Shown here piece by piece: positions 3,032 to 31,675 of a stretch of 32,000 nucleotides of DNA. This DNA comes from Candidatus Saccharimonadota bacterium (lineage in GTDB: Bacteria > Patescibacteriota > Gracilibacteria > BD1-5 > UBA6164), in NCBI GenBank assembly GCA_965227835.1, contig OZ245768.1, positions 1,200,001 to 1,232,000 of the forward strand, written 5' to 3'. The translations under genes and the position numbers were made by a program. The notes under the pieces are model-generated. The model was not told the DNA's origin. It worked only from the letters and a program-made list of their open reading frames with translations, and did not search any database. Every line of letters begins with the position of its first letter. Position 1 is the stretch's first letter.

Positions 3032-4231
3032 ATGTATAAAAGAAACATTGAGAATAAGTTTTTATCTTGGTTAGATAGAGATGAAATACTTATAGTAACA
3101 GGTTCAAGACAGGTTTGAAAGAGCAGTTTTATGAAAAGTATTCAACGAAAACTCAAACAAAAAAATATTTTTTTTAATTTAGAAGATTTTGATATATTAC
3201 AAACATTTGATGAAACACCAAAGAATCTTATTAAAATTCTAGATGAAAAGTTTTGATTAGAAGAAAAAATATATGTTTTTATTGACGAGATACAGTATTT
3301 AAAAAAGCCAAGTCAATTTTTAAAATACATATATGATGAATATAAAAACAGTATAAAACTTATAGTTTCGGGTAGTAGTGCTTTTTATATTGATGAAAAA
3401 TTTGATGATAGCCTAGCTGGAAGAAAAAAAATTTTTTATCTAAGACCTCTTGATTTTAAAGAATTTTTAATATTTAAAGACGAGGAAAGACTTTGAGAAA
3501 AAATAATAGAATTTGATGAATTAACAAATATAACTAAAAATAAAATATATAAATATCTTGAAGAATTTCTTATTTTTTGATGATATCCTAAAGTAGTCCT
3601 AGAGAGAGATAAAGAAATAAAAAAAGAACTTATATGAGAAATAGTTAATTCTTATTTAAAAAAAGATATTTTAGAGTCAAAGATAGAAATGCCTGAAAAG
3701 TTTTTCAAGCTTTATAAAATATTATCAAATCAAAGCTGAAAATTAATAAATGCAAAAGAATTATCAAATACACTGGATATTAGTACAACATCTATAAATA
3801 GATACTTACATGTACTTAAAAAAACTTTCCACTTTTATGAAGTAAAACCTTTTTTTCAGAATATTAGAAAAGAAATCACTAAAATGCCCAAATTTTATAT
3901 TCAAGACCTTTGAATAAAAAATTACTTTGAAAAAAATTTCAATAAAATAGAGTATAGAGTTGATTCTGGAAGTATTTTTGAAACTTTAGTTTTTCATGAA
4001 ATAATAGGAAAAACTCATTTAGATAGTATAAATTTTTGGAGAACTCAAGATAAAAAAGAAATAGATTTTATAATTGATAAAATTCCATATGAAGTAAAAT
4101 TAAGGTATGATTGAAAAAGAATTAATGTAATTGAATATTTTAAAAGAAAATACTTTGAGGAATGAAGAGTAATAACATTGAAAAAAGCTGATAATTCTAA
4201 ATATTTACAATTATACCCTTGGGAAGTTTAA
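3032..4231 (+). CDS. AAA+ ATPase of the AAA_14 / DUF4143 type
   Basis: 399 aa with TGA=Gly. Walker A is TGSRQVGKSS (GGT at 3101 is in frame). Walker B-like is VFIDEIQYL. C-terminal part is YLHVLKKTFHFYEVKPF...WRTQDKKEIDFII, typical of DUF4143 proteins. Start and stop (TAA 4229-4231) are in the same frame. Confidence 0.75.
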
Positions 4232-4348
4232 CGAGTTATCAAGAAAACCCTGAAGAATTCATTTAAAAGAAAAAGAATTATTTAGTTTAATGTTTCAATT
4301 TCTAAAGTTGGAATATTATTTAAAAATTTAAGTAATTTTTGAAAAAAT

Positions 4349-5110
4349 CTATAATTTCTTAAAGATAAATAAATGTTCATGCATAATCAGTAAAAAATTA
4401 GCTTCTTTAGATTTTTTCACCCAAAATCAAGTTGCTTTACAGTTATGCTGTACTTTTATAATATCTTCTTTTAGGTAGAATCAAACATTCAAAAATCTTT
4501 CCATTACTTTAAAAGCAATGGGTTGATACATTTTATTTCTTCTTGTATCTCACATCAATACAGCACAATATTTTCATGGTTTTAATACTCTATAACTCTC
4601 TTTTGCTACTTTTTCTATCTCGTCACAAAATTTATCTATATCATGAATATTTGATAAATCTTCTTTTATTTTTCCATCACTATATTTTATAATATCAGCA
4701 TAAGGAGGATGCATTAATACAAAATCAATACTTTCTTTTTTTAAATCTTTATTTTTTTCGGTGGCATTATATTTTTTTACTATAATTTTAGGTTCCTGTG
4801 ATAAATAAGAGGTTTCAAAATCAAGTAAGTTTTCTGTGAGTTTAATTGCATCAAGATTAATATCATAACAAAGCAAATTTCTATTGAGAAGTTTTGCCTC
4901 AATTGCCGTTGTTCCTCATCAGATCATAGGGTCAAGTAAAAAGTCTCATTCTTTGGAATATCTCAAAATAAGGTTTCTCACTACTTCCGGAGACCAGTTT
5001 CATCTATATTTTGAATTATGTGTCATCCAGTTTCATCTTCTCGGGAAAGACCAAACGGAAGAACATTCTTGTTCAAATTCTGTTGGGGGAAGTTTAAGTT
5101 TTTTAGGCAT
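4349..5110 (-). CDS. DNA amino-methyltransferase (N6-adenine or N4-cytosine), motif I before motif IV
   Basis: 253 aa. N-terminal WSFPRRGNWMTHNSKYRGNWSPEVVRNLILRYSKEGDFLLDPMIGGGTT (AdoMet motif I). HPPY motif IV at 4700-4711. C-terminal GDTRRNKMYQPIAF...IIKVQHN. It extends track ORF 4574..4876 in both directions through TGA. Stop is TAG at 4349-4351. Confidence 0.8.
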
Positions 5111-5420
5111 TTTTCTCAATAAACATATAAAGTTCTACTTCATCTAAAAAATCTAAATATTCAAATTCTTGCCCTACTAAGACAGACTTTGAAAAATAAA
5201 TATTTTCAAGTTTTTCTATTTGTTTACTCCCATTATTTTCTGAAAAGTACCAATCAAAATTTCTTCTTCAAACAGTTAAAAAGTTATTCATATTTATTTT
5301 TTTAATGTCTTTTTCTGATAATCCTTCTTGAAAAACCGGTATACAAAATATTTCTCTAACTTTCAATGTGTCTTTAATTTTTTCAAGCTGATGATAATAA
5401 ACTTTTTTTAAAGTTTTCAT
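5103..5420 (-). CDS. 105-aa ORF of unknown function between the controller and the methyltransferase (candidate small nuclease or toxin)
   Basis: ATG at 5420. The stop TAA (5103-5105) overlaps the methyltransferase ATG (ATGCCTAA), which suggests translational coupling. One in-frame TGA. No motif recognised. An alternative ATG at 5291 would give 62 aa. Confidence 0.45.
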
Positions 5421-5610
5421 TTTTTTCTTTTAATAAAATAATAATTTCAAGTCAAAGAAAATTAAGAATTTTTTGCAAAGTTGGGTTATCAAAATTTTTT
5501 GTTCTTATAGATTTATAAAAATTTTGTTTTGATATTTTTAATTCATTATAAATATCACTTTGCTTTAAGTTTCGTTTTTTTAAAAATTCTTTAATTTGTT
5601 CCTCTAACAT
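5374..5610 (-). CDS. XRE-type helix-turn-helix protein, candidate R-M controller (C) protein
   Basis: 78 aa: MLEEQIKEFLKKRNLKQSDIYNELKISKQNFYKSIRTKNFDNPTLQKILNFLGLEI. This is the classic HTH layout (LKQSDI..ISKQNFYK). Frame checked codon by codon. Its 3' end overlaps ORF 5103..5420 by 47 nt. Confidence 0.6.
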
Positions 5611-5635
5611 TCTTATTTTATTAATTCTTTAAATT

Positions 5636-5658
5636 AAGTCAACTAAATTAGTTTACTT
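5636..5658 (-). promoter_or_regulatory. C-box-like operator palindrome overlapping a -35 element
   Basis: aagtcaactaa-a-ttagtttactt is a 23-bp palindrome with one mismatch, 26-48 nt upstream of the HTH ATG (5610). On the minus strand TTGACT (5642-5637) is followed by 16 nt and then TAAAAT (5620-5615), which ends 4 nt before the ATG. No SD is visible, which suggests a near-leaderless transcript. Confidence 0.4.
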
Positions 5659-5747
5659 TTTGTATATTAAAGATAGACCATTAGAAAATTACTAAATTTA
5701 ATAATAATGTTAATATTTTTCATAAAAAGGTATTTTAAAATATAAAC

Positions 5748-6617
5748 TTATGTAACTAAATCATTTAAAATACCTTTTTTAAGCATTTCAATATTATAAA
5801 TATTTCAATCCATTTTATTGTAAGCTTCTTCTAATGGTTTACTAGCTTCATTCCATCATAACCCATCAGTAATCCAGTAAAATGATATATTTTGATTTTG
5901 CATAAAAGCATACAATCAGGCAAATTCTCAAGCTACTGCTTTTAATTTACTACCTCCTCATCAATAGTAATTTACTTCAAACAAATATAATTTATGATTT
6001 TCACTATTATAAACTGCAAAATCAAATCTTCTACTAGATTTATCTAATTGAACATCAATTCACCACTCTTTTTTCATAAAAATAGTTGTTGCTTGCTGTT
6101 TATACTCAAGTCATGGATTTCTTTCACATAAATCTTTTACAAATTCTTCTACTAACTCTTCCATTAAATCTCATGTTCTGTTTTTTCTCGCATTAGAATC
6201 AAGTCATGTTTCTACTCAAAAAACATAGTCATTTAAATTTGATATATTTTTATTCTCAAAAACATCTTTTAAACCGGATTCTCTGAAAAATAAAAGCATA
6301 TCAGAATCTTTAAAATCTTTTTTGCTATTAAATAAGTGTCTTACTTCAGATACTTCTAGAGTATTTTTATTAAGGATTTGCTTATCAAAATCTCTTACAG
6401 CTATTAAAATAGGTAATATCTCTCTTGTTTCAGGATATTCTTTCAAAATACTTAAAAGCTTATCCTCTATATTATTTTCTCATAAAAGAGAATTTAATAT
6501 ATTTAATTGAACTTTTATTTTAAAAGTATTTTCTTTAATTTTATTAAAATCTGAGAAATAATCCCAAGAAAATATAGAAGATTGCAATGTGGTTATTAGA
6601 TTTTGAAAATTTTGCAT
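5748..6617 (-). CDS. type II restriction endonuclease, DpnII/MboI family (GATC-type by family)
   Basis: 289 aa. Core YVFGVETGLDSNARKNRTGDLMEELV...RRFDFAVYNSENHKLYLFEVNYYGGGGSKLKAVAGEF matches my memory of the DpnII family signature. It extends track ORF 6216..6446. Start, internal stop and final TAA (5748-5750) are all in one frame. Confidence 0.85.
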
Positions 6618-6621
6618 ATTA

Positions 6622-8364
6622 TTAAATTTTTACTTCTTTTAATTCTTTGTTTAAATAATCAGAAAAATCTTTTGATTTAGCTGTATGTACAATATTGTCA
6701 ATTCACTTTTCCGGAGACTTATCATATGAATCTAATATTTTTAACAAAATTCGTAATCAACTATTAAAAACCTCTGTAGATAAATCCTCTAATTTAATTC
6801 ATTTAATTTCAATAAAAGTATAATCATATTTTTGTAAAACAATAACTGTTGTAATTAACATTAAATGAAAAGTAAAATTTCTTATAGAAACTCAATAATT
6901 ATTACTTATTAAATCTTCTTCCATATTTATAATTGAACCATTAACAAACTTATTAATAATACAAACTTTCAAATAAAGTTCTAATGGGACTTTATAATTA
7001 AATATTTTTTTATATGTCTCTGCATCTTTTACTAAAGATGTAGGATTTGCCCTAGCAGTTCAAGGACTTTTAAATAAAACTGTCTCAATATATTGAGCAA
7101 CTTTAGGAATATCAAATATTTTATTTCTGTCTTTATTTAAATTTTTATAATAATTTTTTCTTCTATCATAAAAATAACCTTCAGAAATAAAATATTCTTC
7201 AATATCTCTTTGTAGTCAATCAGTAGCTTTTAGATCAGCAGGTCTAACTGCTGTTTGACTATTTGTAGATTTTATAATTTTATCAATTACTTTTAAATCA
7301 TTACTTTTTATTAATTTTATTAATATGGTTCTCTTTTCATCTTTTAATAAGCTATTATTTTCAGTGAAAAAATTAAAAATTGAATAACTAGTTTGTAATC
7401 AATTTACAATTTGTGAATTTTTTAATCTTAATTTTTTTCATGGTAAAGGAGTTACTTCATCATTAATTATAGTAATTCAATTATTTAACCACAAAAATTC
7501 AATATTTGAATCCTCTTTTAAAGTTTCATAAATGTTATTATTAACTTCAACATTTCATTGCCAATGTCTTACATTATTTTCAAGCATATGTTCTTTAATT
7601 TTTCAGTTATCTCAACTAATAAAATTAAAATAATCTTTTATTTTTGCTTGAACAATATAAGCAACTTTTTCATCGTCTCATCAAAAAACTGTATTTATAT
7701 CATTTTCATATTTTAATATTAATTCATTATCTTCTTGCATTAAATATAATTCTCTTAATTTATGCCTTCAAATAATTGATATTTCAACATCCGTTGGGAT
7801 TTTATCTTTTATAAATCTACACAAAATACCAGATTTATTTTTTACTCACTCTGAAATATTACTTTCATTTCACTTAGAAATATAAATAATATTTATTTTA
7901 ATTTTATTTGTATATATTGGGAAATTATCTAATCATTTTTTTACCATATCAAATTTTGAAATTAATCCTTTATTATAATTTTTTTCTTCTAATTTATCAT
8001 CAAAATAATTATGAAAAGTTGCAATTAACTTATCAAAAGTAATCTCTTTAAAACTATCTGAATCTTTATTTTGAATGAAATATATTTCAAAAGTTGTATT
8101 TTTATTAATCTCTTTATTAGTAATTAAGCTATCTAATTCATCTTTTGTTAAAATAAACTTATCGTCAACTAACAATATTATTGAATCTATTCAACCATCA
8201 GATCATTTATCAACTATTGAAAAATAAATATCTTCAATGTTAATGTTTTTATTTTTTAAAATTTGAGAAATTGAGAAAACATCAAATAAGTTTTTTGATG
8301 ATAAACAATTATTTTTTCAAAATTGAGTTATTATTGAATCAATTAATTTAATATCTATTCACAT
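6622..8364 (-). CDS. AIPR-family (abortive infection phage resistance) protein
   Basis: 580 aa. N-terminal FDVFSISQILKNKNINIEDIYFSIVDKGSDGGIDSIILLVDDK, central WLNNGITIIND and SQIVNGLQTSYSI, all typical AIPR motifs. Same frame as track ORF 7933..8175. It starts 17 nt after the Dam stop and ends 4 nt before the endonuclease ATG. Confidence 0.8.
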
Positions 8365-8381
8365 ATATTTATTATTAAAAA

Positions 8382-9344
8382 CTAATAATTAACAACCACA
8401 ACCTCTTCAATTTCTCCTCTTCAACTCCCATTACTATTTACATTTCTTCTAGCTTTCACTATTTCAAATCTAAATCACTTGTATAATTCTCTTATAAAAG
8501 GAGTATTATGGTTTGATAACATTACATAAACTCATTTTTTATCTAATGCTCTAAATACCTTCGCTAATTTAGATTGCATATCTTGTCAAAATCATGAACT
8601 ATCATAAGAAGTGAAATTTGCACTTGTAGAAAGTACATCATAAGGAGGATCAAAATAAACAAAATCTCATTTTTTTGCTTTCGTTAAGACTTTTTCAAAA
8701 CTTTGTAACTTTATTTCTGCTTTAGTATTATTTAGTAACCTTGAAGTATTTATAATATTATCTCTTTGAATTATATCTGGATTATTATATTTTCAAAAAG
8801 GCACATTAAATTCTCCTTTTGAATTTACTCTGTATAAACCATTAAAGCAAGTTCTATTCAAGTATATAAATCTTCAAGCTCTCTGCAAAGAAGAATATTT
8901 TTTTTGAAAATTCTGTTCTCTGTCCCAAGCTCTAATTTCTAAGAATTTTTCTTTTGAGTATTCTAAAGACTCTAAAAAAGTAATTAACTTTTTAGGTTTT
9001 GTTTTAATTGTTTTATAAACATTAATAAGTTCTTCATTTACATCAGATAAAAAACTTTTTTCTCTCTGCAAGTTAAAAAAAACTGCACCTCATCACAAGA
9101 AAGGTTCAAGATAATCATTAAAATCTTGAGGATATAGTTTTTCAAACTGTGAAATGAGCTGTCTTTTACCTCAAACCCACTTTATGAAAGGCTTTGCTTT
9201 TATCGTATCAATATTTTCTTCAAAGAATTGTTCTCAAGATTTTAAATCATTAAAAAATCATCTCTTAAACCAAGATTGCACAACTTGGATACTGATTCAA
9301 AACTTATTAGCTAATTCTAAATTTATTAATGTAATACTTGCCAT
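8382..9344 (-). CDS. dam: Dam-type (D12 class) N6-adenine DNA methyltransferase with an N-terminal HTH-like extension
   Basis: 320 aa. KPFIKWVGGKRQL (TGA=Gly at 9171-9173), FLGGGAVFF, DVNEELINVYKTIK, NRTCFNGLYRVN, and DPPY at 8640-8651. Same frame as track ORF 8874..9071. An in-frame TAA lies just upstream of the ATG at 9344. Confidence 0.9.
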
Positions 9345-9420
9345 ATTGATTATTTTGCTTTTTTAAACAAGTTCCTAGTTTTTGTTCTAGAAAACTTTTA
9401 ATCCTTCACAAAACCAACTT

Positions 9421-11343
9421 CTAAACCTCCGTAATCATAGCTATAACCATAGGTTCTCTATCAATCTTTCTAGACATAAAAGACTCTAAATCTGTCCTTA
9501 TAATCTTTAATAAATCCTTTTCAGGAATATCAGGAACATCTTTTATAGTATTTTCATAAGTTTCTCTAGATTTTTTTATCAAACTTCTATGCACATTTTT
9601 AACTTCATCTAAATAAACAAGACCTCTAGTTTCAAGTTTTATATGCCCAATTATAGCTCTTGTTTTTTTATCTGCTCTATAATTTATAACCAAAACACCT
9701 GCTTCCATCATCTTCTCCCTAGCTTTCAACACATGTGATCAAGCTATACTCATAGCATATCAATCAATAACTATTTGCTGTATAGGAACCTTTATCTTAG
9801 ATTTGAATATATCTCAAGTATGGGGAGCAAAATCAACTATCTGACCATTGTCTAACAAAAGTATATTATCTTGAGGAAATCAAATACATGTAGCTGTTTT
9901 TCAGTGAATAGTCCTAAAATATAAATCTCAATAAACAGGCATAAAGTATTTTGGTTTTATCAAGTTTAAAAATATTTTTTGTTCTTCTTGAAAAGCATGT
10001 CATCAAGTATGATATTCTCAATCATCTTTTGTTAAAACATTTGCTCAAAGTTTTATCAGTTTATTTATAATGGCAACTACACTTCTATCATTACCCGGAA
10101 CTACACTTGATGAGAAAACTATAGTATCTCACTTTATTATCTCAACTGCACTGTGTGTTCATTCTGCCATCCTAGAAAGAGCTGAAAATTGTTCTCACTG
10201 ACTTCAAGTAGTTATTATAATTTGATTATGAGGAAGTATTCATTCAGTATTTTTAGGTGTCATTTTTTTTACAATACCAAGTTTAATATTTAAATAACCA
10301 AGTTTTCTAGCTATTTCGACATTTTCAATCATACTTCTTCAACTTAAAAATATGGTTTTTCAGTATTTATCAGAAATATCTATAAGTTGCTGTACTCTAG
10401 ATATCCAAGACGAAAAAGCAGCTATTATAAGTCTTCATCTTTTGTGATTTTTAACTATCTCATCAAGAGCTTCTCAAACATTTTTTTCACTCATAGAATG
10501 TCACTTCCTAGGAGAACCTGTAGAATCAGATAAAAAAAGAGTTATTCATCTAGATCATATTTCTCAAATTCTATCTAAATCAGCTGGAGAATCTATAGCT
10601 GGATTTAGATCTATTTTAAAGTCTCATGTATGTACAAATTTAACTCAAGTAGGAGACTCCATATAAAATCAAGCACAATCAGGAACAGAATGATTTACCT
10701 TGAAAAATTCAAAGCTAAGTTGTCATATTTTATGTCTTTTATTACTTCAAGCATCTACTTCTATAAGCACTGCTTTGTCCAAAACTCAAGCCTCTTCTAA
10801 TTGTTTTTTTACAAAACCTATTGTCAGTTTAGTTCAATATAAAGGAGGAAAACCCATTGCAGGATATACATGTTTTAATGCTCAAATATGATCAAGATGA
10901 GCATGAGTAATAACAAAACCTTTTATTTGTGATGTATATTTTGTAAGAAAAGAAACATCGGGTATAGAGTAGTTTACACCCGGTAAGGTATGATCAGTGA
11001 ATTGAACTCAACAGTCTATAAGTATAATATCTTCCCCGTATTGTATCATACTCATATTTTTAGAACCTGTTTCATCATTACCTCAAATAGGTATATATCT
11101 AGTATAACCTTCTCTAATAGTAGGAAGATAAAATTTAGTTTCTGGAAATTTTGATATAAATTTTTCTTGATAATTTATCTGATTTGTATTATTTCTATTG
11201 TTTTGATTACTTTGATTTGATATTTGGTTTTTATTATCTTGTGTATTTTTTGATATAGTTTGGGAAGAATCTTTTTTAAGATTCTCTGATCACAAAAGCA
11301 TATCGTCTAGTTCATTATCTAGCTCATTTAAAATATCTGTCAT
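9421..11343 (-). CDS. rnj: ribonuclease J (beta-CASP metallo-beta-lactamase RNase)
   Basis: 640 aa. THAHLDHIGA at 10879-10908, with the Gly encoded by TGA 10882-10884. Also VHTGDFK, ITTGSQGE and HTGGHA motifs. The C-terminus equals track ORF 9421..9732. Confidence 0.9.
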
Positions 11344-16201: not shown

Positions 16202-16606
16202 CTACAATCAAAGGTTTTTCTTTATTTCTTCTTCTTTAGCTTTATCTTCTTCTTCTTTAGCTTTATTTTCAGCTTCTGATTTGTATAAGTCTCATAGTTG
16301 TAACCATTCTGTTTGTTGCTTTGTAAGCAATTTCTTGATGTCTTCAGGGTGTTCTTTTGCTAGTTCTTTAAACTTCTCTCTTTCTTCTACAAAAACTTTT
16401 TTTAGTTCATCAAATTGAAACTGACTTAAGGTAGGAACAGCATCAACTACCCTTTTTTTCTCTTGGGTATTTAAAGATAAACTATGTTTTAAGAGGTCAA
16501 GAAACTCTTGTACATCTAGAACTATTTCTGCTCAATGTTTCTTTAATAGCTCTAAAATTATTATATCAACTTCTTGTTCTGTTATTTGCAATCATGAATC
16601 TGACAT
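16202..16606 (-). CDS. hypothetical acidic helical protein, 134 aa
   Basis: ATG at 16606, TAG at 16202-16204, four in-frame TGA. K/E-rich C-terminus. No family recognised. Confidence 0.5.
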
Positions 16607-16702
16607 AAACTTGAAAATTATTTTTTAAACATTAGCATTATACTAATATTTTATCTATTGCAATTTTTTAAAGAAAAAAACTTAAAAATAAGGTTTCAAA
16701 AA

Positions 16703-17269
16703 ATGTCAACATTTAAAGATTCAGCTATTGTTTTAAAGTTACACAAAAGGGAAAAAATGAATTTTACCTATCAGTTATTAAGTGAAAAATTTGGAAAAAT
16801 ATTAGCAACAAAAAAAATAAGTTCTAGAGAAAAGATTATTGATTTATGATATTATATAAATTATGAGATAGAAACAAAAGGTGAAAATGGAGCAAATAAA
16901 ATGAAAAATGTAAAAATACTAAGACAATTTAACTATGAGAGCAAAAGCTTTGATGAGATAAATTGGTTTTTGTTAATGATATCAACAATATTAAAAAAAA
17001 TAGAGTTTGGTGTAGATAATATAAAAATAAATGATGTAATAAAAGAAATAATAAGTTATAAAAAAGATGATTTGATAGAAAAGATAGTTTTAGCAATTTT
17101 GAAAATAATAAACTTACTTTGAGAACTTAATATATATCACAAAAATATAAAAATAAAAAAAATACTTCTTTTTTTAAATAATAATAATTTTAAGGAAATA
17201 TTAAAATTGTCATGAATAGATGAGGAAACAAAAAAAGAGCTACAATCAGTTGTTTATAAATTTTTGTAA
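16703..17269 (+). CDS. recO: short RecO-like protein (tentative)
   Basis: 188 aa, formed by joining track ORFs 16658..16849 and 16901..17122 through TGA. The N-terminus FKDSAIVLKLHKREKMNFTYQLLSEKFGKILATKK resembles the RecO OB-fold start, and a later AILKIINLLGEL helix fits. No Zn-finger region is present. Confidence 0.4.
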
Positions 17270-17431: not shown

Positions 17432-17459
17432 TTGACATTTATGTTTTTGTTAATATAAT
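17432..17459 (+). promoter_or_regulatory. consensus sigma70-type promoter
   Basis: TTGACA (17432-17437), 16-nt spacer, TATAAT (17454-17459). It lies about 200 nt upstream of the ATG at 17663. Confidence 0.5.
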
Positions 17460-17465
17460 TTAGTA

Positions 17466-17662
17466 TAGTTTTAGGGGGTAACAATCTACACTTAATTTAT
17501 AATAATATAAATATAGTTATAATTAAGAGTAGATATTCTACTTGCTAAACCGATTCGAGAAACCAATATGCTAGTAAAGATTTTTATTAACAGATTGGTT
17601 TCTCGAATAATCGAGTACCACAATCAATTATCTAAACATTAAATTTCAAAAGGAGGTAAACC
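17466..17662 (+). promoter_or_regulatory. long structured 5' leader (candidate cis-regulatory RNA, class not recognised)
   Basis: Perfect 15-bp stem attcgagaaaccaat (17553-17567) with attggtttctcgaat (17594-17608). GTAGAT at 17529-17534 can pair either with ATCTAC at 17484-17489 or with TCTAC at 17537-17541, which are mutually exclusive helices. A G-run lies at 17474-17478 and SD AGGAGG at 17651-17656. Confidence 0.35.
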
Positions 17663-18106
17663 ATGTTTGGAATAATAATAGCTATAGTTATTGCAGTATT
17701 TACAATTTTCGTCAGTAGCAATACTATGGAGGTTGGTTTCATTTCTGCCCTAGATTTTCTTTGGGTATGGTACTGGATTTGGACTGTATTGCAGGGGCTT
17801 ATCATAGCATTTATTATGCTGATCATTACAGGGGTTCTGACTTTCTCTGGAGCTAATATCCTAAGCTCAAAAGCTGGTGCTTTTTTGGGGATTGCGGCAG
17901 GTGGAGCATTATCAATATTATTTGTTACAAAACTCGCAATAAGAAGTATATTATTATTAGGTGGGGTTTACCTACTAATGACATCAGGAAATGCAGAAAT
18001 GACATTCTCTGAATTTGATAATACAAAGCTGATCTTTGGGGCAATTTTGCTTCTAATAGGTCTAATTATGTCTAAAAACTCCAGTTCATCTTCTTCTAGC
18101 AATTAG
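17663..18106 (+). CDS. small polytopic membrane protein (4-5 TM, Ser-rich tail), unknown function
   Basis: An intact 147-aa ORF even under the standard code. It has a strong SD, a consensus promoter and a strong terminator. There are 14 Gly codons, none of them TGA. Confidence 0.8.
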   Translation: MFGIIIAIVIAVFTIFVSSNTMEVGFISALDFLWVWYWIWTVLQGLIIAFIMLIITGVLTFSGANILSSKAGAFLGIAAGGALSILFVTKLAIRSILLLGGVYLLMTSGNAEMTFSEFDNTKLIFGAILLLIGLIMSKNSSSSSSSN

Positions 18107-18123
18107 GATAATTAAACGGTTTT

Positions 18124-18153
18124 AGAGTGGCACCGTAAGCCACTCTTTTTTTT
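18124..18153 (+). terminator. rho-independent terminator
   Basis: agagtggc (18124-18131), accgtaa loop, gccactct (18139-18146), then T7 (18147-18153). Confidence 0.8.
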
Positions 18154-18368
18154 GTCTGAAATTCTAGTATATAATTCAACATACACTAAAAATTAATATG
18201 ACAACTAAAATCAAACCCGTGTGATGTAATATTTTAAGTATTAGTTAATGGAAATAATTAATAATCATTTTTATTTTAATATTTTCTAGAATGTCAACAT
18301 TTTTTACTTCTATATTTTTTAAACTTATGATAAAGTTAATACAGATATATTTAAAACAAAAACAAAAA

Positions 18369-21200
18369 ATGTGAAATAAAAAATTTAATATAGTTTTTTT
18401 CAGCTTAGTTTGATACTTTTTTTTAATTGCTACAAGCTTTGCTTGAGCTCTTTCATGAACATCAAGATACAGTCAAACTCAAAACAAAAAAGAAGAAACC
18501 CAAGAAGTATGACTTTTAGAAACCATCAAAGACTTCTTTTTCAGCTTAGTGAGTTGGATATTCCTATGAATAATAATATTTCTGCTTTTTTATATTATTG
18601 TAAAAACGATAAGAGTAGCTTTTGAGGTATATTATGCAAAAAATATAAGATATTTGAAGATAACTCTACCAAGAGCAGACTCAAAACTAGATAAAGAACA
18701 AGAAACAAAAAAAGATTTTAAAGAAAAACTAGGAATGATGAGTATGTTTTACAAAGCTATACATAAACTATCTGAAGCTGGACTAAAAGATACATTTTTA
18801 AATACAATATTTTGACATTCAAAAATATCCCTAGAACTTGTTTATGACAAATGAGAAGTTTGCTTTTTTATAACAACATATACAAACTATGTAAGTCTAG
18901 TAATGCAACATCTAACCTCTGTATACAACAACGCAGAAATAATAGTATATGAATGAGTAAAAGACTATGTTAATCTAAAAGAAGAATGATACAGTCTGAG
19001 AGCTGCCTCTCTATGAAAAGAAAAAGATGATTTTTTTCCTATCAAAACCTATAAATACTTAGAAGATGATGCCATAAATAATTTCACAAATGTTTTTTGA
19101 TGATTAAACAAAGATGACAAGGCTGTTTTTCAAATGGTAATAAAACCTGAACCATCTAGTTATAACAAAAAAGCAAAAGAAGCAGCATCAAAAGTAGCAA
19201 AATGAAAGTACAAGGCAAACAAAAAATCAACTTTACAATTTTTATGGAAACCCTTTTGACTTCTTTTTAACCCAATAAGAATAATTTTTGAATGATCAGA
19301 TGCTGCAGTAGCAGATCAAAATAATGCACCATGAGCAAGCCAATGAGATTCTTATAAGATATTCAACCAAGCTGAAACAGAAAGTCAAAAATTGATGTGA
19401 GAAGCTGCTAGCCAACCTGTTTTTGAAACCAGCATAAGAATACTTGTTTCTAGTAAAGACAAACAAAAATCAGAAGATTGAATACATGCAATAGTTGCAG
19501 CTGCTTCTATATTTACAGATGAGTACAATAATGCTTTGGATAACCCTCAAATAATAGAAGATGCTATACCTTGATTGATAACAAAAATAAGATATTTTGC
19601 TTTTAAATACAAACTTGTATGATTTTTACAAAATATATCTTATCTATCAACGGATGAAATAACAACGATTTATCATATGCCTGATATAACTTATAATAAA
19701 TCCCCTATTATAAAATGGCTTGATTATAAAAAACTAGCTCCCCCTCATAATTTAAAAATACCTAAAGAACCTACTTATTTGACAAAAAAAGATCCAAAAA
19801 CAGGAGAAACAAAAAAAATACATATGCACCTCTGAGGTTTTCCAGTTTACAGTGATGGTGTTTTATTGGGATGGAATGAGTATAGAAACAAAAAGACACC
19901 TATATATTTTTCAAAAAAAGACAGAGGAAGACACCAGTATGTTTTATGAAAATCTGGTTGAGGTAAATCTGTATATATAGGTTATCTAGCTAGACAAGAC
20001 CTGCGGAATTGAGAATGATTTTGTGTAGTTGATCCTCATGGAGATTTAGTAGAGGATGTATTGGCATATACACCAAAAGAGAGGGCTAAAAATATTACTA
20101 TTTTTGATCCTGCTGACACAGAGAGACCTATGGGACTTAATATGCTTGAAGTAATATCTAAAGATCCAGATGCTAGAAAAAGAGAAATGGATAGAGCCGC
20201 AATGGATGCAACAGAGATATTTATAAAAATATTTGGTGATGAAATATTTGGTCCAAGAATACAGCATTATTTTAGAAATGGTTGTTTGACTTTAATGGAA
20301 GATAGTGAAGATGGATGAACACTTATAGATGTACCTAGACTTTTTGTAGATGATGCTTTTATGAAATACAAAGTTTCTAAAGTAAAAAATCCTGTAGTTA
20401 AATCATTTTGGGATCATGAATATGCAAATACTTGAGATAGAGAAAAACAAGAAATGATACCTTATTTCTCTTCTAAGTTCGGTCCTTTTGTAACAAACAC
20501 AACTATAAGAAATATAATATGACAACCTAAATCTGCTTTTAATATAAGAGAGTTAATGGATAACCAAGGTGTTTTACTTGTAAATCTTTCAAAAGGTAAA
20601 ATAGGAGCTTTAAATGCTCAGTTACTTTGACTTATTTTCGTATCAAAGATAAATATGGCAGCTATGAGTAGGGCAGATATACCTCAAGATCAAAGAAAAG
20701 ATTTTTATTTATATGTAGATGAGTTTCAAAATTTCGCTACAGAAACTTTTTGAGAAATATTGAGTGAGGCTAGAAAATATAAACTAGCGTTGATTATGGC
20801 TCATCAATTTATAGCTCAAATTTGATGAAATTGATCACAAAAATGAGATAAACCTTCTATTAAAGATGCTGTTTTTGGTAATGCTTGAACACTACAATCT
20901 TTCAAAGTATGAGCAGATGATGCTGAATATTTAGAAAAAGAATATGCCCCTTCTCTTTCTCAGCAAGACATAATAGGTGTTGCTAACTTTACTACGTATG
21001 TAAAACTAAACATAGATAATGCATCAAGTAGACCTTTTGATATAAAAACAATTTGGGATCAGGCTTATGAATATGAAAAAGCTAAAAATGGTGTAACAAT
21101 AGCTGAAATAGTCAGAGAATACTCTAGAAAAAAATACTGAAGAAGAAAAAAGTTTGTGGATTTAGAAATAGAAGCAAGGCTTTGAATAAAATCCGAGTAA
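18369..21200 (+). CDS. membrane-anchored P-loop ATPase, type IV secretion coupling-protein-like (VirD4/TraD/TraG-like)
   Basis: 943 aa. Two N-terminal TM helices. Walker A GKSGGGKS at 19947-19970 (two Gly are TGA), followed by CVVDPHGDL. Walker B YLYVDEFQNFAT (DE at 20718-20723). ARKYKLALIMAHQFIAQI. It runs through track ORF 20061..20318 in the same frame. Stop is TAA at 21198-21200. Confidence 0.7.
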
Positions 21201-21270
21201 CAATATTTTGAAATTTTTTAAATAAAGTGTTATTATTTGGTTGATGTATAAATTTTTAAGAAATAAAAGT

Positions 21271-22257
21271 ATGAAAAACAAAATAAAAAAAATATTTATC
21301 TGTTTAAGTTTTTTAGCAATTTACTTATTATGTTTTTTTGGTGTATCAAATAACTATACTTCAGCAAATATAGACGAAAACATAAATATAAATTTAGTAG
21401 ATGATTGAGATAAAGAAAGAAACAAGGAATTAAATAAATTTTGAAAAAGTGAAGATGGTTTTTTTGGTCTATGAAGTAGACAATGATGACAATGAATTTT
21501 TTATACTTTGGTTGAAATAGCCCAAAGTTTGAAAAATATGTTTTTTATATTAGCTACCTTGTTTTACTTAATAGTTTCTATAAAGCTTTTAGTAGCTGAA
21601 AACACAGAGGAACAAGTTAATAAATTCAAAAAAGCAATTATATGGGTAACTATAGGACTTATTATAATGCAAATAGCTTATTCTTTTACTGTAACACTAT
21701 ATGCAAAAGAAGTTTGAAGCTCTCTAGCTTTCAGTTTTATAAACAACATAGTAAATCCTTTAATATGATTAATGGAAGTACTTGCTTCTATGTTTTTCAT
21801 AGCAATAGCAATATTTGCTTTTTATAGAATGGTTACAGCAAATGGAAAAGAAGAAGAAGTAACTAGAGCTAAAATGTCTATAGTATATGCTATTATTTGA
21901 TTTATTTTAATAAAAGTAGCAAAAATTATAGTAGAATGAGTGTATGGAAAATTAGAATGTGAAGAAACAAGTATAGCAGGATTTAACATAACTACAACTA
22001 GTTGTATATGAGACGCTCAACTAAATACTCTAAGTTTTACTTTTATGCAAATAATAAATTGGGTAAACTCATTTGTGTGAATAATAACAGTACTTCTTAT
22101 AATATATGCTTGATTTAATATACTTTTCTCTGCTGGAGATGATGAAAAAGTTAAAAAAGGTAAAAACACTATAATATATATAGCTATTTGATTATTACTT
22201 TTATCTATAAACTACCTTTTATTAACTTTCTTTATAGTTCCAGAAACAACTATATAA
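21271..22257 (+). CDS. secreted/membrane protein with three tandem VirB2/TrbC-like (T4SS pilin-like) two-helix modules
   Basis: 328 aa. Signal peptide MKNKIKKIFICLSFLAIYLLCFF. Three repeats of the pattern TM helix, small acidic loop with K-rich motif, TM helix. The loops are LVAENTEEQVNKFKKAI, VTANGKEEEVTRAKMSI and FSAGDDEKVKKGKNTI. Same frame as track ORF 21508..21717. An alternative in-frame ATG lies at 21244. Confidence 0.6.
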
Positions 22258-22327
22258 ATAGTTTTTAAAACAGAATAAAAAACAAAATTAGTCTTACCTG
22301 AAAATTTTAATTCTTTTATTTAAAAAA

Positions 22328-23239
22328 ATGAAAAAAAGATACCTAGTTTTAATAGTTTTAGCAATAATTTCTCTTAGTTTATTTTGAGAAACTTTAGCAT
22401 GATATGGAAATATATTGTGATGAGATGAAATTAAAAAATCTTCTATAAATATAGAAGAAAAAATGGATGCTTGATGAGATATAGTATGAAGTATAAATAA
22501 TGTTTGATTTAGTGCTCTTTCTGTAATAAAACTTATTATCCAAGGTTTACTTGTAATATATATAGTTTATGTAGGAGCACAAATGGTTTGGGCTATGTGA
22601 GAAGATGAAGAGACATTAAGTAGTGCAAAAAGACAGATACGGTACAGTGTTATAGCTTTGCTTTTTATAAATATACCTTGAAGTATATATAGAGCTATAA
22701 ACCAAGATAGTTACTCTAAGGTATGAGAAAGGATTAGTAATGATAATTTTTTGGATAAATGAACAGAAACAAATATGTTTTTTGATGTATTTAATTTTTG
22801 ATATACTTTTTGAGATCAGGTAGTCTGATTTTTAGAAGTAACTATTTTAGCTATAGCTATAATAATAATTATATATGAAGGAATTAAACTTATAACAAGT
22901 AGATGAAGAGAAGAAAGAATAACTGAAGCTAAAAACAAAATAGTTTATGGTGTGCTTGCTTTAGTTTTTGTATGAATAATAGAAGCATGGAAGAATTTTG
23001 CTTTTTCTTTCAAAGTTTCTGAAGCAAGGAATATATTTAGCAATTTAGCTGATTTAGCTTTATTTTTCGCTGCTCCTGTTGCATTTTTCTTTTTAACAAT
23101 AGCTGCTTATTATTACATAACTTCAGCTTGAGATGAAGAAAGAATAAAAAAGGCAAAATCTATTGTAATAAATACCATTTTAGCTACACTAATTTTATTA
23201 GCAGCATACACTTTCTTACTTGATTTAGCTGAACTTTAA
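22328..23239 (+). CDS. second protein with three tandem T4SS pilin-like modules
   Basis: 303 aa. Signal peptide MKKRYLVLIVLAIISLSLF. Module loops are WAMGEDEETLSSAKRQI, ITSRGREERITEAKNKI and ITSAGDEERIKKAKSIV, each flanked by hydrophobic helices. Start and stop are in frame. Confidence 0.6.
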
Positions 23240-23264
23240 AAAAATAAATTTTAAATAAATAAAA

Positions 23265-23702
23265 ATGAAAAAAATAGTTTTGTTTGTTTTTGTATTAATA
23301 TTTACATGTTTTTATTCTTCAAATATTTATGCTGAAGATACAGGTACAATAAAAGTAGAAGTTCCAATTAATTTCTCTTGAGTTTTTGGTTCTAATGAAG
23401 AAGGTGGAGTAAAATGTAGCGATACTGCTTGAGATAATGGTAAATATTATTGTAATGTACCGAAATGAACTTCTTGATTTCAAGTTGTTCTTGCTTGAAT
23501 TATTAAGTATTTAATTTTTATAGCAAGTTTAGCTTGAGTTTTATTTATAGTAATAAATGGGATACTTTATACTATGTCTGGTATAAATGATTCTTTAAAA
23601 TCATCAGCAAAAGAGAGGATCATAAAAACTCTTTTGTGAATTATTCTTTTGATTATGAGTTGAGTTATCTTAAATATAATAGCTCCTTGGGTTTATAAGT
23701 AG
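23265..23702 (+). CDS. single-module T4SS pilin-like protein
   Basis: 145 aa. Signal peptide MKKIVLFVFVLIFTCFYSSNIYA, a Cys-containing ectodomain, then a helix, MSGINDSLKSSAKERI, and a second helix. Stop is TAG at 23700-23702. Confidence 0.6.
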
Positions 23703-29158: not shown

Positions 29159-29182
29159 ACCCCCGGTCAAGAGACCGGGGGT
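29159..29182. terminator. bidirectional GC-rich rho-independent terminator
   Basis: acccccggtc, aaga loop, gaccgggggt (perfect 10 bp). An A run lies upstream and a T run downstream. It sits between convergent glyA and the small minus-strand gene. Confidence 0.8.
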
Positions 29183-29188
29183 ATTTTG

Positions 29189-29383
29189 TTAGTTTTGCTT
29201 CTTGATTAAGGTTTTATCAATATGTGATTTTATTGAGCTTCCAACCTCTTCAACTGCTATAAGTATTGCAAGCCCAAAAAGGAATATTGCTGGTACAAAC
29301 ATATCAAATTCGTAAAAAAAACTTGAACATAAAAAAAGGAATAAACAAGAAGCAAAAATTGAAGCTCTCATTGACTGTTTCAT
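29189..29383 (-). CDS. 64-aa two-TM membrane protein
   Basis: ATG at 29383 preceded by AGGAGA at SD distance (the track ORF starts at an upstream TTG). MKQSMRASIFASCLFLFLCSSFFYEFDMFVPAIFLFGLAILIAV. TAA at 29189-29191 and no TGA. Confidence 0.55.
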   Translation of the reverse strand: MKQSMRASIFASCLFLFLCSSFFYEFDMFVPAIFLFGLAILIAVEEVGSSIKSHIDKTLIKKQN

Positions 29384-29493
29384 AAAATATCTCCTGATAA
29401 AAGATAGCAAAACTATACGAAATATATAGAATTGCCATTTAATTGTTTAAAGGTTAAAACAGAAAAAGACAAATCTTCTATTTTTGTGACACC

Positions 29494-29521
29494 ACTATAA
29501 TTATAATATTTTTAATGTCAA
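29494..29521 (-). promoter_or_regulatory. sigma70-like promoter for the 64-aa gene
   Basis: On the minus strand: TTGACA (29521-29516), 16-nt spacer, TATAGT (29499-29494). Confidence 0.4.
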
Positions 29522-31004: not shown

Positions 31005-31675
31005 TTTCAACACATCGGGATAAAAACCCCTATCTTTAGATAGTTAAGACACCGAAGGTGTAAGTGATAGAAATTGAATAAATGAGATGTGTTGTGACAT
31101 AGGGTTTTAAACCCCGTTGCCTTCAGGCCGATTCTAAAGAAAAAAGTGTAAAAAATCAATAGAATAAATAAAATAGTGTTAAAAACTAACACTAGAGAGA
31201 ATGAAATACCAAAAAAGTAGTCATGCGACATATGATGTCAGATACCATATAGTATGGATAACAAAATACAGAAATCCATTCATGACAAAAGAGATACAAG
31301 ATAGATTGGAAAAGATCATAAGATGAATAAGTAAAAAGCTATGAGTAATAATAATAAAGATATGAATGGAAGAAGATCATGTACATATGTATTGTAGGAT
31401 ACCGTTAACTAAACCAATATCTACAATAGTATGACATATAAAGTGAGAAAGTTCTAAGGCAATAAAGAGGTATTTTTACAAAGAAATTAAGAGATGGTAT
31501 TGGAAGACATGAAATATATGGTGAGTATGATATTTTGTATCTAGTGTATGAGAGATAAATTGAGAAATAATATCTAATTATGTGGAACAACAGTGAGAAG
31601 AAGAGAATAAGATTGAAGAGATAGAGCTTTAAATTTCAGTACAAATAAAAGCCCCGTGCCTTCAGGCCGGGGTAG
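31005..31675 (+). mobile_element. IS200-type (IS200/IS605 family, tnpA only) insertion sequence; ends approximate
   Basis: A HUH transposase gene is flanked by related GC-rich subterminal hairpins: cg-tt-gcc ttca ggc-cg at 31115-31130 and ccccg-t-gcc ttca ggccgggg at 31652-31672. The left end also carries a long-range 9-bp stem, 31008-31016 with 31086-31094, enclosing two small hairpins. Confidence 0.6.
31201..31632 (+). CDS. tnpA: IS200/IS605 family transposase TnpA (Y1 HUH)
   Basis: 143 aa. SHATYDVRYHIVWITKYR, EEDHVHMY (HUH) and GVGYFVSSVG (catalytic Tyr region). It has eight in-frame TGA read as Gly. Stop is TAA at 31630-31632. Confidence 0.85.

Follow-up and report, generated by a model that had tools for sequence, protein, structure and literature searches.

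Given that TGA is read as glycine in bacteria that use genetic code 25, a gene that never employs this codon raises the question of where it came from. We address this question for one such gene in a 32,000-nucleotide stretch of contig OZ245768.1 (the window, about 24% GC). The gene lies upstream of a type IV secretion cluster, encodes a predicted membrane protein of 147 residues and carries its own strong expression signals. The initial annotation of this DNA had offered two explanations, recent acquisition from a standard-code donor such as a host or phage, or very high expression under selection against TGA decoding. Our analysis leads us to consider it probable, at about 0.75, that the gene was horizontally acquired from a standard-code donor, most probably another bacterium from the Candidate Phyla Radiation (CPR).

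Codon composition of the gene and its host

When TGA is translated as a sense codon, open reading frames (ORFs) of at least 80 amino acids in the window sum to 11,363 residues, against 1,662 residues when it is a stop, a sevenfold difference. Within the gene for the type IV secretion coupling protein, 101 of 149 aligned TGA codons correspond to glycine in GC-richer orthologues and none to tryptophan, which rules out code 4 (TGA as tryptophan). Because TGA aligns with glycine and never with tryptophan, and because reading it as sense so extends the ORFs, the window is from a code-25 Gracilibacterium in which TGA encodes glycine. Its coupling protein shares 57-90% identity with those of 80 loci, whose GTDB genomes carry the label Gracilibacteria, 'Peribacteria' or Patescibacteria. 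The region within 10 kb on either side of the coupling-protein gene in each of these 80 genomes, about 1.3 Mb altogether, forms the sister comparison used below. No tRNA gene was found in the window.

All 14 glycines of the TGA-free gene are encoded by GGN (4 GGA, 5 GGT and 5 GGG), whereas the other 24 genes of the window, called by a simple longest-ORF rule, together use 391 TGA and 146 GGN codons (a TGA fraction of 0.73). At that fraction, 14 glycine codons without a TGA have a probability of about 1e-8, or 3e-8 with the pooled fraction of the sister-locus comparison. The gene has a GC content of 0.356 and a third-position GC content (GC3) of about 0.29 (0.288-0.293), against 0.19-0.30 and 0.09-0.25, respectively, in the other window genes. 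We then simulated genes for the same protein, drawing each synonymous codon at the frequency seen in the other window genes. The expectation from this simulation was 10.2 TGA codons and a GC3 of 0.157, from which the gene departs with z=+5.5 for GC3, +7.7 for total GC and -8.4 for codon log-likelihood. Its codon usage deviates more than that of any other window gene, none of which exceeds |z|=3.5 for GC3. The over-used codons are GGG (5/14, against 2% in the background), CTG (3/21, 2%), ATC (4/22, 3%), AGC and TTC. The initial annotation had described the gene as lacking TGA among TGA-rich neighbours and as G+C-richer, with an excess of CTG and GGG; the per-gene glycine-codon, GC3 and codon statistics that it proposed, run here within the window, bear out both descriptions.

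The compositional island extends from about 17550 to 18153. GC content is 0.14 in the promoter and 0.13 in the first leader hairpin, both AT-rich like host intergenic DNA, then 0.32 in the second hairpin and 0.36 in both the ORF and the terminator region, with flanks at 0.16-0.18. The next outlier of the window is an IS200-like Y1 transposase gene (31201-31632; Pfam Y1_Tnp; GC3 z=+3.4). Its pattern is the opposite of that of the TGA-free gene, since all 11 of its glycines are encoded by TGA and none by GGN.

Homologues and expression signals

A profile search of 1.84 billion representative proteins returned 253 family representatives at E<=1e-3 and 131 at E<=1e-10, about 135-170 residues long (typically about 145) and nearly all matching over their full length. 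A word-indexed search yielded six relatives at 36-59% identity and a metagenome scan three more. Conserved across the family are a tryptophan-rich second helix, glycine-rich motifs and a serine-rich tail. Organism names are attached to four members, which come from Paceibacterota, Nomurabacteria, WWE3 and the Parcubacteria group, all of them standard-code CPR bacteria. Judged from these sequences, the family appears to be an unannotated, CPR-wide group of small four-helix membrane proteins.

In a neighbour-joining tree the window protein shares a clade with P0002, P0003 and P0004 and with the proteins from loci L015-L017. Its four nearest relatives are 54-59% identical, and all of its clade-mates are encoded on standard-code contigs. 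The code of the homologue contigs follows from their genes, none of which contains an in-frame TGA where called, and many of which end in TGA. The profile search and phylogeny put forward in the initial annotation thus place the window copy among relatives that use the standard code.

Sister genomes give a complementary result. The coupling-protein gene and the three T4SS_pilin genes downstream of it keep a syntenic arrangement at 45-70 of the 80 sister loci, and the sequence upstream of the secretion cluster is conserved in no sister genome. No homologue emerged when seven family proteins were searched by tblastn, under code 25, against the approximately 1.3 Mb of sister sequence, so that the comparison with sister genomes suggested earlier, carried out over 80 ±10-kb loci, detects neither the gene nor a conserved upstream gene order. 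A subclade-motif scan of 185,579 GTDB species genomes likewise returned no relative, by means of a single peptide motif that misses divergent members: the WWE3 and Nomurabacteria members, which deviate from the motif in the A2 alignment, were not returned.

The homologues themselves often deviate from their surroundings. The family gene has a GC3 of 0.73-0.76 in L001, L011 and L013, against roughly 0.2-0.5 for its neighbours, and of 0.74 in L015; the L010 gene (P0005, just outside the clade) reaches 0.83 on a contig of mixed composition (neighbours 0.42-0.90). Within the clade and its nearest neighbours the composition agrees with that of the genome in L017 alone (57% GC). The L004 gene (P0006, on the next branch out) is AT-richer than its flanks. 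At the WWE3 locus L102 and the Nomurabacteria locus L103 the family gene is near local composition and carries the same strong signals. Neighbours of family genes include tRNA genes (L010, L016), a defence pair of helix-turn-helix and HEPN-AbiU2 genes (L011) and, beside the Paceibacterota member (L100), a tyrosine recombinase, an IS1595 transposase and a P63C-domain gene. We also observed that L001 (1674-1944) and L011 (about 1745-2008), whose contigs are otherwise unrelated, share about 75% nucleotide identity over some 270 nucleotides beyond the stop and terminator of the family gene, in a block that holds no called gene.

The expression signals of the window copy (Table 1) include the TTGACA-16-TATAAT promoter that had been reported; it is the one site in 32 kb to match the consensus at 12 of 12 positions, with about 0.17 such matches expected by chance from base composition. 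Because of this chance expectation, it is the location of the promoter and its conservation across homologues that lend it weight. Among the 13 family loci examined, the window included, the -35 element is TTGACA in 10 and TTGACT in 3, with a good -10 box in all; three promoters (window, L099 and L100) match at 12/12. Strength is judged here against an E. coli-type consensus. The AGGAGG Shine-Dalgarno sequence is present as described and is the sole window copy that precedes a start codon, and most family loci have a ribosome-binding site of the GGAGG or AGGAG type at the same place, together with a GC-rich terminator. Strong expression signals therefore characterise the family as a whole, in all hosts examined. 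The initial annotation had treated them as part of what sets the gene apart; with near-consensus promoters at 13 of 13 loci, they do not mark it as foreign. Since the family carries such promoters everywhere, the gene is probably highly expressed.

Weighing transfer against its rivals

High expression could in principle explain the absence of TGA, and we therefore examined how this codon is used in 430 sister-locus genes with at least 10 glycine codons, at loci where TGA makes up at least 55% of glycine codons. Eight of the 430 are TGA-free, and four (about 1%) combine this with high GC3. The TGA-poor genes form two classes. In the first are native highly expressed genes, namely those for EF-Tu, L19, TypA, EF-G and a large surface protein, with low GC3 (z about 0). 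EF-Tu genes (L024, L037, L038, L041, L048, L053 and L059) contain 0-10 TGA, 26-32 GGT and 0-3 GGG codons (no GGG in 5 of 7 copies) at a GC3 of 0.08-0.14, and the L19 genes (L030, L039) encode none of their 10 glycines with TGA at a GC3 of 0.10. Such avoidance suggests that the reassigned codon is decoded less well; we found no earlier report in the literature of TGA avoidance in highly expressed genes of Gracilibacteria. The second class has raised GC3 and comprises the window gene (z=+3.1 in this comparison), an L096/L063 pair, a DapB_C-domain gene in L033 and a fragment in L093.

The window gene belongs to the raised-GC3 class and not to the GGT-rich native one. It resembles optimised code-25 genes such as those for EF-Tu and L19 in its strong depletion of TGA. 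These genes, however, use GGT nearly exclusively at the low GC3 of the host, whereas the window gene uses GGG, GGA and GGT about equally at roughly twice the expected GC3. Other members of its class were observed at sister loci. The L096 (2595-3524) and L063 (1041-2081) genes are homologous, encode 309 and 346 residues and form TGA-free, GC-rich islands like that of the window (0-1 TGA against 15-23 GGN; GC 0.44-0.45 in loci of 0.25); the L096 protein, the one of the pair that was scanned, has no Pfam family. The L033 DapB_C-domain gene (8874-9830), directly upstream of the coupling-protein gene, has no TGA among its 19 glycine codons in a genome where TGA accounts for 71% of them. The site upstream of the secretion cluster may take up foreign genes repeatedly.

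It could still be argued that the gene is native, inherited vertically within the CPR and kept free of TGA by translational selection for very high expression. The family is CPR-wide and Gracilibacteria are CPR bacteria; the 12/12 promoter, strong Shine-Dalgarno sequence and terminator fit high expression; avoidance of TGA is real in EF-Tu, L19, TypA, EF-G and the surface protein; and at the TGA fraction of EF-Tu, about 15% of glycines, 0 of 14 would have a probability of about 0.1. This account nonetheless leaves the codon choices unexplained, with 5 of 14 glycines as GGG, a GC3 of 0.29 and over-use of CTG, ATC and AGC where optimised genes favour GGT at a GC3 of 0.08-0.14. It is also at odds with the failure of both the sister-locus search (80 loci) and the GTDB motif scan to reveal a copy, with clade-mates that all lie in standard-code genomes, and with the free use of TGA by the neighbouring pilin genes, themselves membrane-protein genes (14/9, 18/5 and 8/7 TGA/GGN). 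We therefore consider a native origin unlikely. The earlier proposal of selection against TGA in a highly expressed gene holds insofar as such selection exists in the lineage, as in EF-Tu, and fails to account for the high GC3 and the GGG codons of this gene; the suggestion that TGA-free genes might prove ribosomal or highly expressed was likewise correct in part, these being GGT-rich with low GC3.

A mobile element might also have left the gene behind. In the classic moron layout of lambdoid phages, a promoter and a terminator serve one gene alone, and its composition stands out from the DNA around it. The window unit shares this autonomy, as well as the single ORF, the deviating composition and the patchy distribution, and genes for tyrosine recombinases, for an IS1595 transposase and for a P63C-domain protein lie beside some family members (L100, L102). 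Cargo of a phage or integrative element able to function under either code would be TGA-free, and TGA-free, code-11-compatible phages with closely spaced alternative stops have been predicted to infect Gracilibacteria and Absconditabacteria (mBio 2023, PMC10746230). Like these phages, the gene has no in-frame TGA and closely spaced non-TGA stops, TAG and then TAA, and reads identically under codes 11 and 25; unlike them, it is not a whole genome but a single chromosomal gene of a cellular CPR family. Moreover, searches of IMG/VR contigs, 50,697 phage genomes (INPHARED), plasmids and PHROGs yielded no relatives, no phage or recombinase gene flanks the unit (its neighbours are a hypothetical gene and the secretion cluster), and there is neither a recognisable prophage around it nor a convincing pair of flanking repeats. 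We regard this origin as very unlikely. As for a host or phage as the donor, which the initial annotation had in mind, the viral and plasmid searches and the exclusively CPR membership among named proteins give it no support. Finally, the gene is short and membrane proteins are skewed in composition, which might seem to leave room for chance; probabilities of 1e-8 to 3e-8, the outlying position under the fixed-protein simulation and the scarcity of TGA-free sister genes (8/430) reduce this to a negligible possibility. The loss of TGA by chance in native short genes with no compositional deviation, which had been named as the observation that would undo the case, is thus not what we found in the window and the sister loci.

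Acquisition from a standard-code donor accounts for the GC3, the use of GGG, the standard-code relatives and the lack of a homologue in the sister loci searched. The gene combines a deviation in composition that persists after control for amino-acid sequence with nearest relatives outside the host lineage. This part of the initial annotation is accordingly upheld: the clade-mates are standard-code, the sister loci hold no copy, and the codon pattern looks foreign, not optimised. In the model that we propose, the unit would be a self-contained single gene with a consensus promoter, structured leader, strong ribosome-binding site, ORF and intrinsic terminator, which the Gracilibacterium would have acquired horizontally. 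It would lack TGA glycine codons since its ancestors, under the standard code, could not use them, and it would have drifted part-way towards the AT-rich, TGA-rich codon usage of the host. No recoding would have been required, given that there is no in-frame TGA and that TAG is followed by TAA, so that both codes would read the gene alike. Selection against TGA may help to keep it TGA-free; we regard transfer as primary and such selection as complementary. What the data show is the composition, the genetic code, how the family is distributed, the expression signals and the lack of a relative within ±10 kb of the cluster in related genomes; which way the gene moved, how strongly it is expressed and what its protein does are what we infer within this model.

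Several observations weigh against transfer. No empty site is available for comparison: upstream gene order is unconserved, and even the closest relative reaches no more than about 90% identity in its coupling protein. The donor is unsampled, with the best match at 59% identity, and the hosts of the nearest homologues have no lineage assignment. Divergent native copies may exist in other Gracilibacteria, where the single-motif GTDB scan would miss them. The window has no mobility gene beside the unit, from which the IS200-like transposase is separated by 13 kb, and a search for flanking repeats that would mark an insertion gave weak, low-complexity AT-rich pairs alone. If the donor was as GC-rich as the clade-mates, the gene would have moved about three-quarters of the way to the GC3 of its host and yet gained no TGA, which would call for an AT-richer donor, a slow step from GGA to TGA, or selection against TGA.

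The initial annotation had presented such a crossing of the code barrier as rare. This is overstated, as 4 of 430 sister genes bear the same signature. The crossing is little hindered because a standard-code gene in a code-25 cell is affected solely through a TGA stop. The event is thus a clear example of a known process and not a rarity.

Leader, neighbourhood and protein family

The coordinates of the unit and of the features around it are collected in Table 1.

Table 1. Features of the TGA-free unit and other annotated parts of the window.
Feature	Position	Strand	Details
Sigma-70-type promoter (predicted)	17432-17459	+	-35 TTGACA 17432-17437; 16-nt spacer; -10 TATAAT 17454-17459
5' leader	17460-17662	+	about 200 nt; two long hairpins
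Leader hairpin 1 arms	17484-17497/17521-17534	+	14-nt inverted repeat, 93% complementary
Leader hairpin 2 arms	17553-17578/17583-17608	+	26-nt inverted repeat, 88% complementary
Shine-Dalgarno AGGAGG	17651-17656	+	6 nt before ATG
TGA-free ORF	17663-18106	+	147 aa; no TGA; TAG stop, in-frame TAA two codons later
Intrinsic terminator (predicted)	18124-18154	+	8-bp stem (18124-18146), 5 G-C pairs, 7-nt loop, T-run
Type IV secretion coupling protein gene	18291-21200		969 aa; Pfam T4SS-DNA_transf
Three pilin genes downstream of coupling-protein gene	block 18291-23702, including coupling-protein gene		Pfam T4SS_pilin
Second unit, terminator	29182-29159	-	GC-rich, bidirectional, common to glyA; 10-bp stem, 8 G-C
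Second unit, ORF (ribosome-binding site CAGGAG)	29383-29189	-	64-aa hydrophobic ORF; both glycines GGN; GC3 0.23
Second unit, promoter	29521	-	TTGACA-16-TATAGT, 11/12
Defence cluster, members with Pfam basis	within 3032-9344		DpnII endonuclease; AIPR abortive-infection protein
Defence cluster, members assigned by reading, without Pfam check	within 3032-9344		399-aa putative ATPase; putative N4/N6 methyltransferase; Dam-like methyltransferase

The leader of the window copy is predicted to fold at -57.6 kcal/mol (z=-7.2 against shuffled sequences, -5.9 in a repeat run). Leaders of the homologues are mostly 38-72 nucleotides long (range 38-210) and differ in sequence; that of L004 alone is similarly long and structured, and its sequence is unrelated. 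We considered a riboswitch or other known RNA, for which Rfam gave no match at the gathering score and hairpin-shaped chance matches alone at permissive E-values. An attenuator was rejected as neither hairpin is followed by a T-run, a repeated palindromic element or miniature inverted-repeat transposable element as the arm of hairpin 2 is unique within the window, and a leader peptide or antisense gene as the leader holds short ORFs alone, without translation signals. The leader might instead stabilise the mRNA, be processed by RNase III at the 26-bp stem, or act as a palindromic operator.

The GC-rich terminator noted in the initial annotation is present and is the sole terminator-like site found between 12 and 24 kb in the window. 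It is not distinctive in the way supposed, given that a stronger GC-rich one lies at 29159-29182. The latter belongs to a second self-contained small unit on the minus strand (29159-29521) with no Pfam or Rfam match. The strong signals of this second unit indicate that such signals alone are not a mark of a foreign gene.

Elsewhere in the window, the gene upstream of the unit (16574-17269) was considered as RecO-like and gave no Pfam match. A defence cluster at 3032-9344 consists entirely of TGA-rich genes, which would therefore be long resident or derived from code-25 donors.

The protein encoded by the TGA-free gene is predicted to be a four-helix integral membrane protein with a serine-rich C-terminal tail. 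An AlphaFold2 model built from 69 sequences has a mean confidence score (pLDDT) of 92.6, with helices at residues 2-16, 22-67, 70-107 and 120-137. Consistent with its earlier description as uncharacterised, the protein matches no annotated family in Pfam, NCBIfam, PHROGs, PADLOC or PDB sequences. Foldseek searches with two AlphaFold2 models, of which the above is the better, gave nothing significant (all PDB matches at E>4; BFVD at E>=1.8), so that no function could be assigned from the fold; a defence effector was rejected for want of a PADLOC match. Holins, small multidrug resistance transporters, Fluc/CrcB channels and bacteriocin or superinfection immunity proteins are alike in size (about 145 residues), in having several hydrophobic helices and in their polar C-terminal tail. 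They are unlike the protein in sequence and fold, with no significant database match. We suggest that it most likely functions by itself in the membrane, as an abundant component of the envelope.

A further possibility, speculative and distinctly unlikely in our judgement, is that the family is a mobile, self-expressing cassette which circulates among CPR bacteria under either code, kept TGA-free in the Gracilibacterium by selection for expression or onward transfer and not just by a recent arrival, and whose product is an abundant envelope component of benefit to episymbiotic cells. If this were true, the benefit might be, for example, membrane protection or exclusion.

Nothing here overturns current understanding. 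The gene cleanly marks, in a form that can be dated, a flow of genes from bacteria with the standard code into a lineage with code 25, and its missing TGA glycine codons serve as a second clock beside the amelioration of GC content. The roughly 1% of sister-locus genes with the same signature, together with the avoidance of TGA in native genes, bear on how complete the reassignment of TGA to glycine is and what it costs. What was less to be expected is the family itself, with signals for expression that are uniformly near consensus. This unannotated family, found across the CPR, comprises 253 representative clusters and has a fold that is predicted with confidence and lacks a counterpart in PDB and BFVD, and the near-consensus promoter at all 13 loci makes its product a reasonable candidate for an abundant envelope protein of these uncultivated cells.

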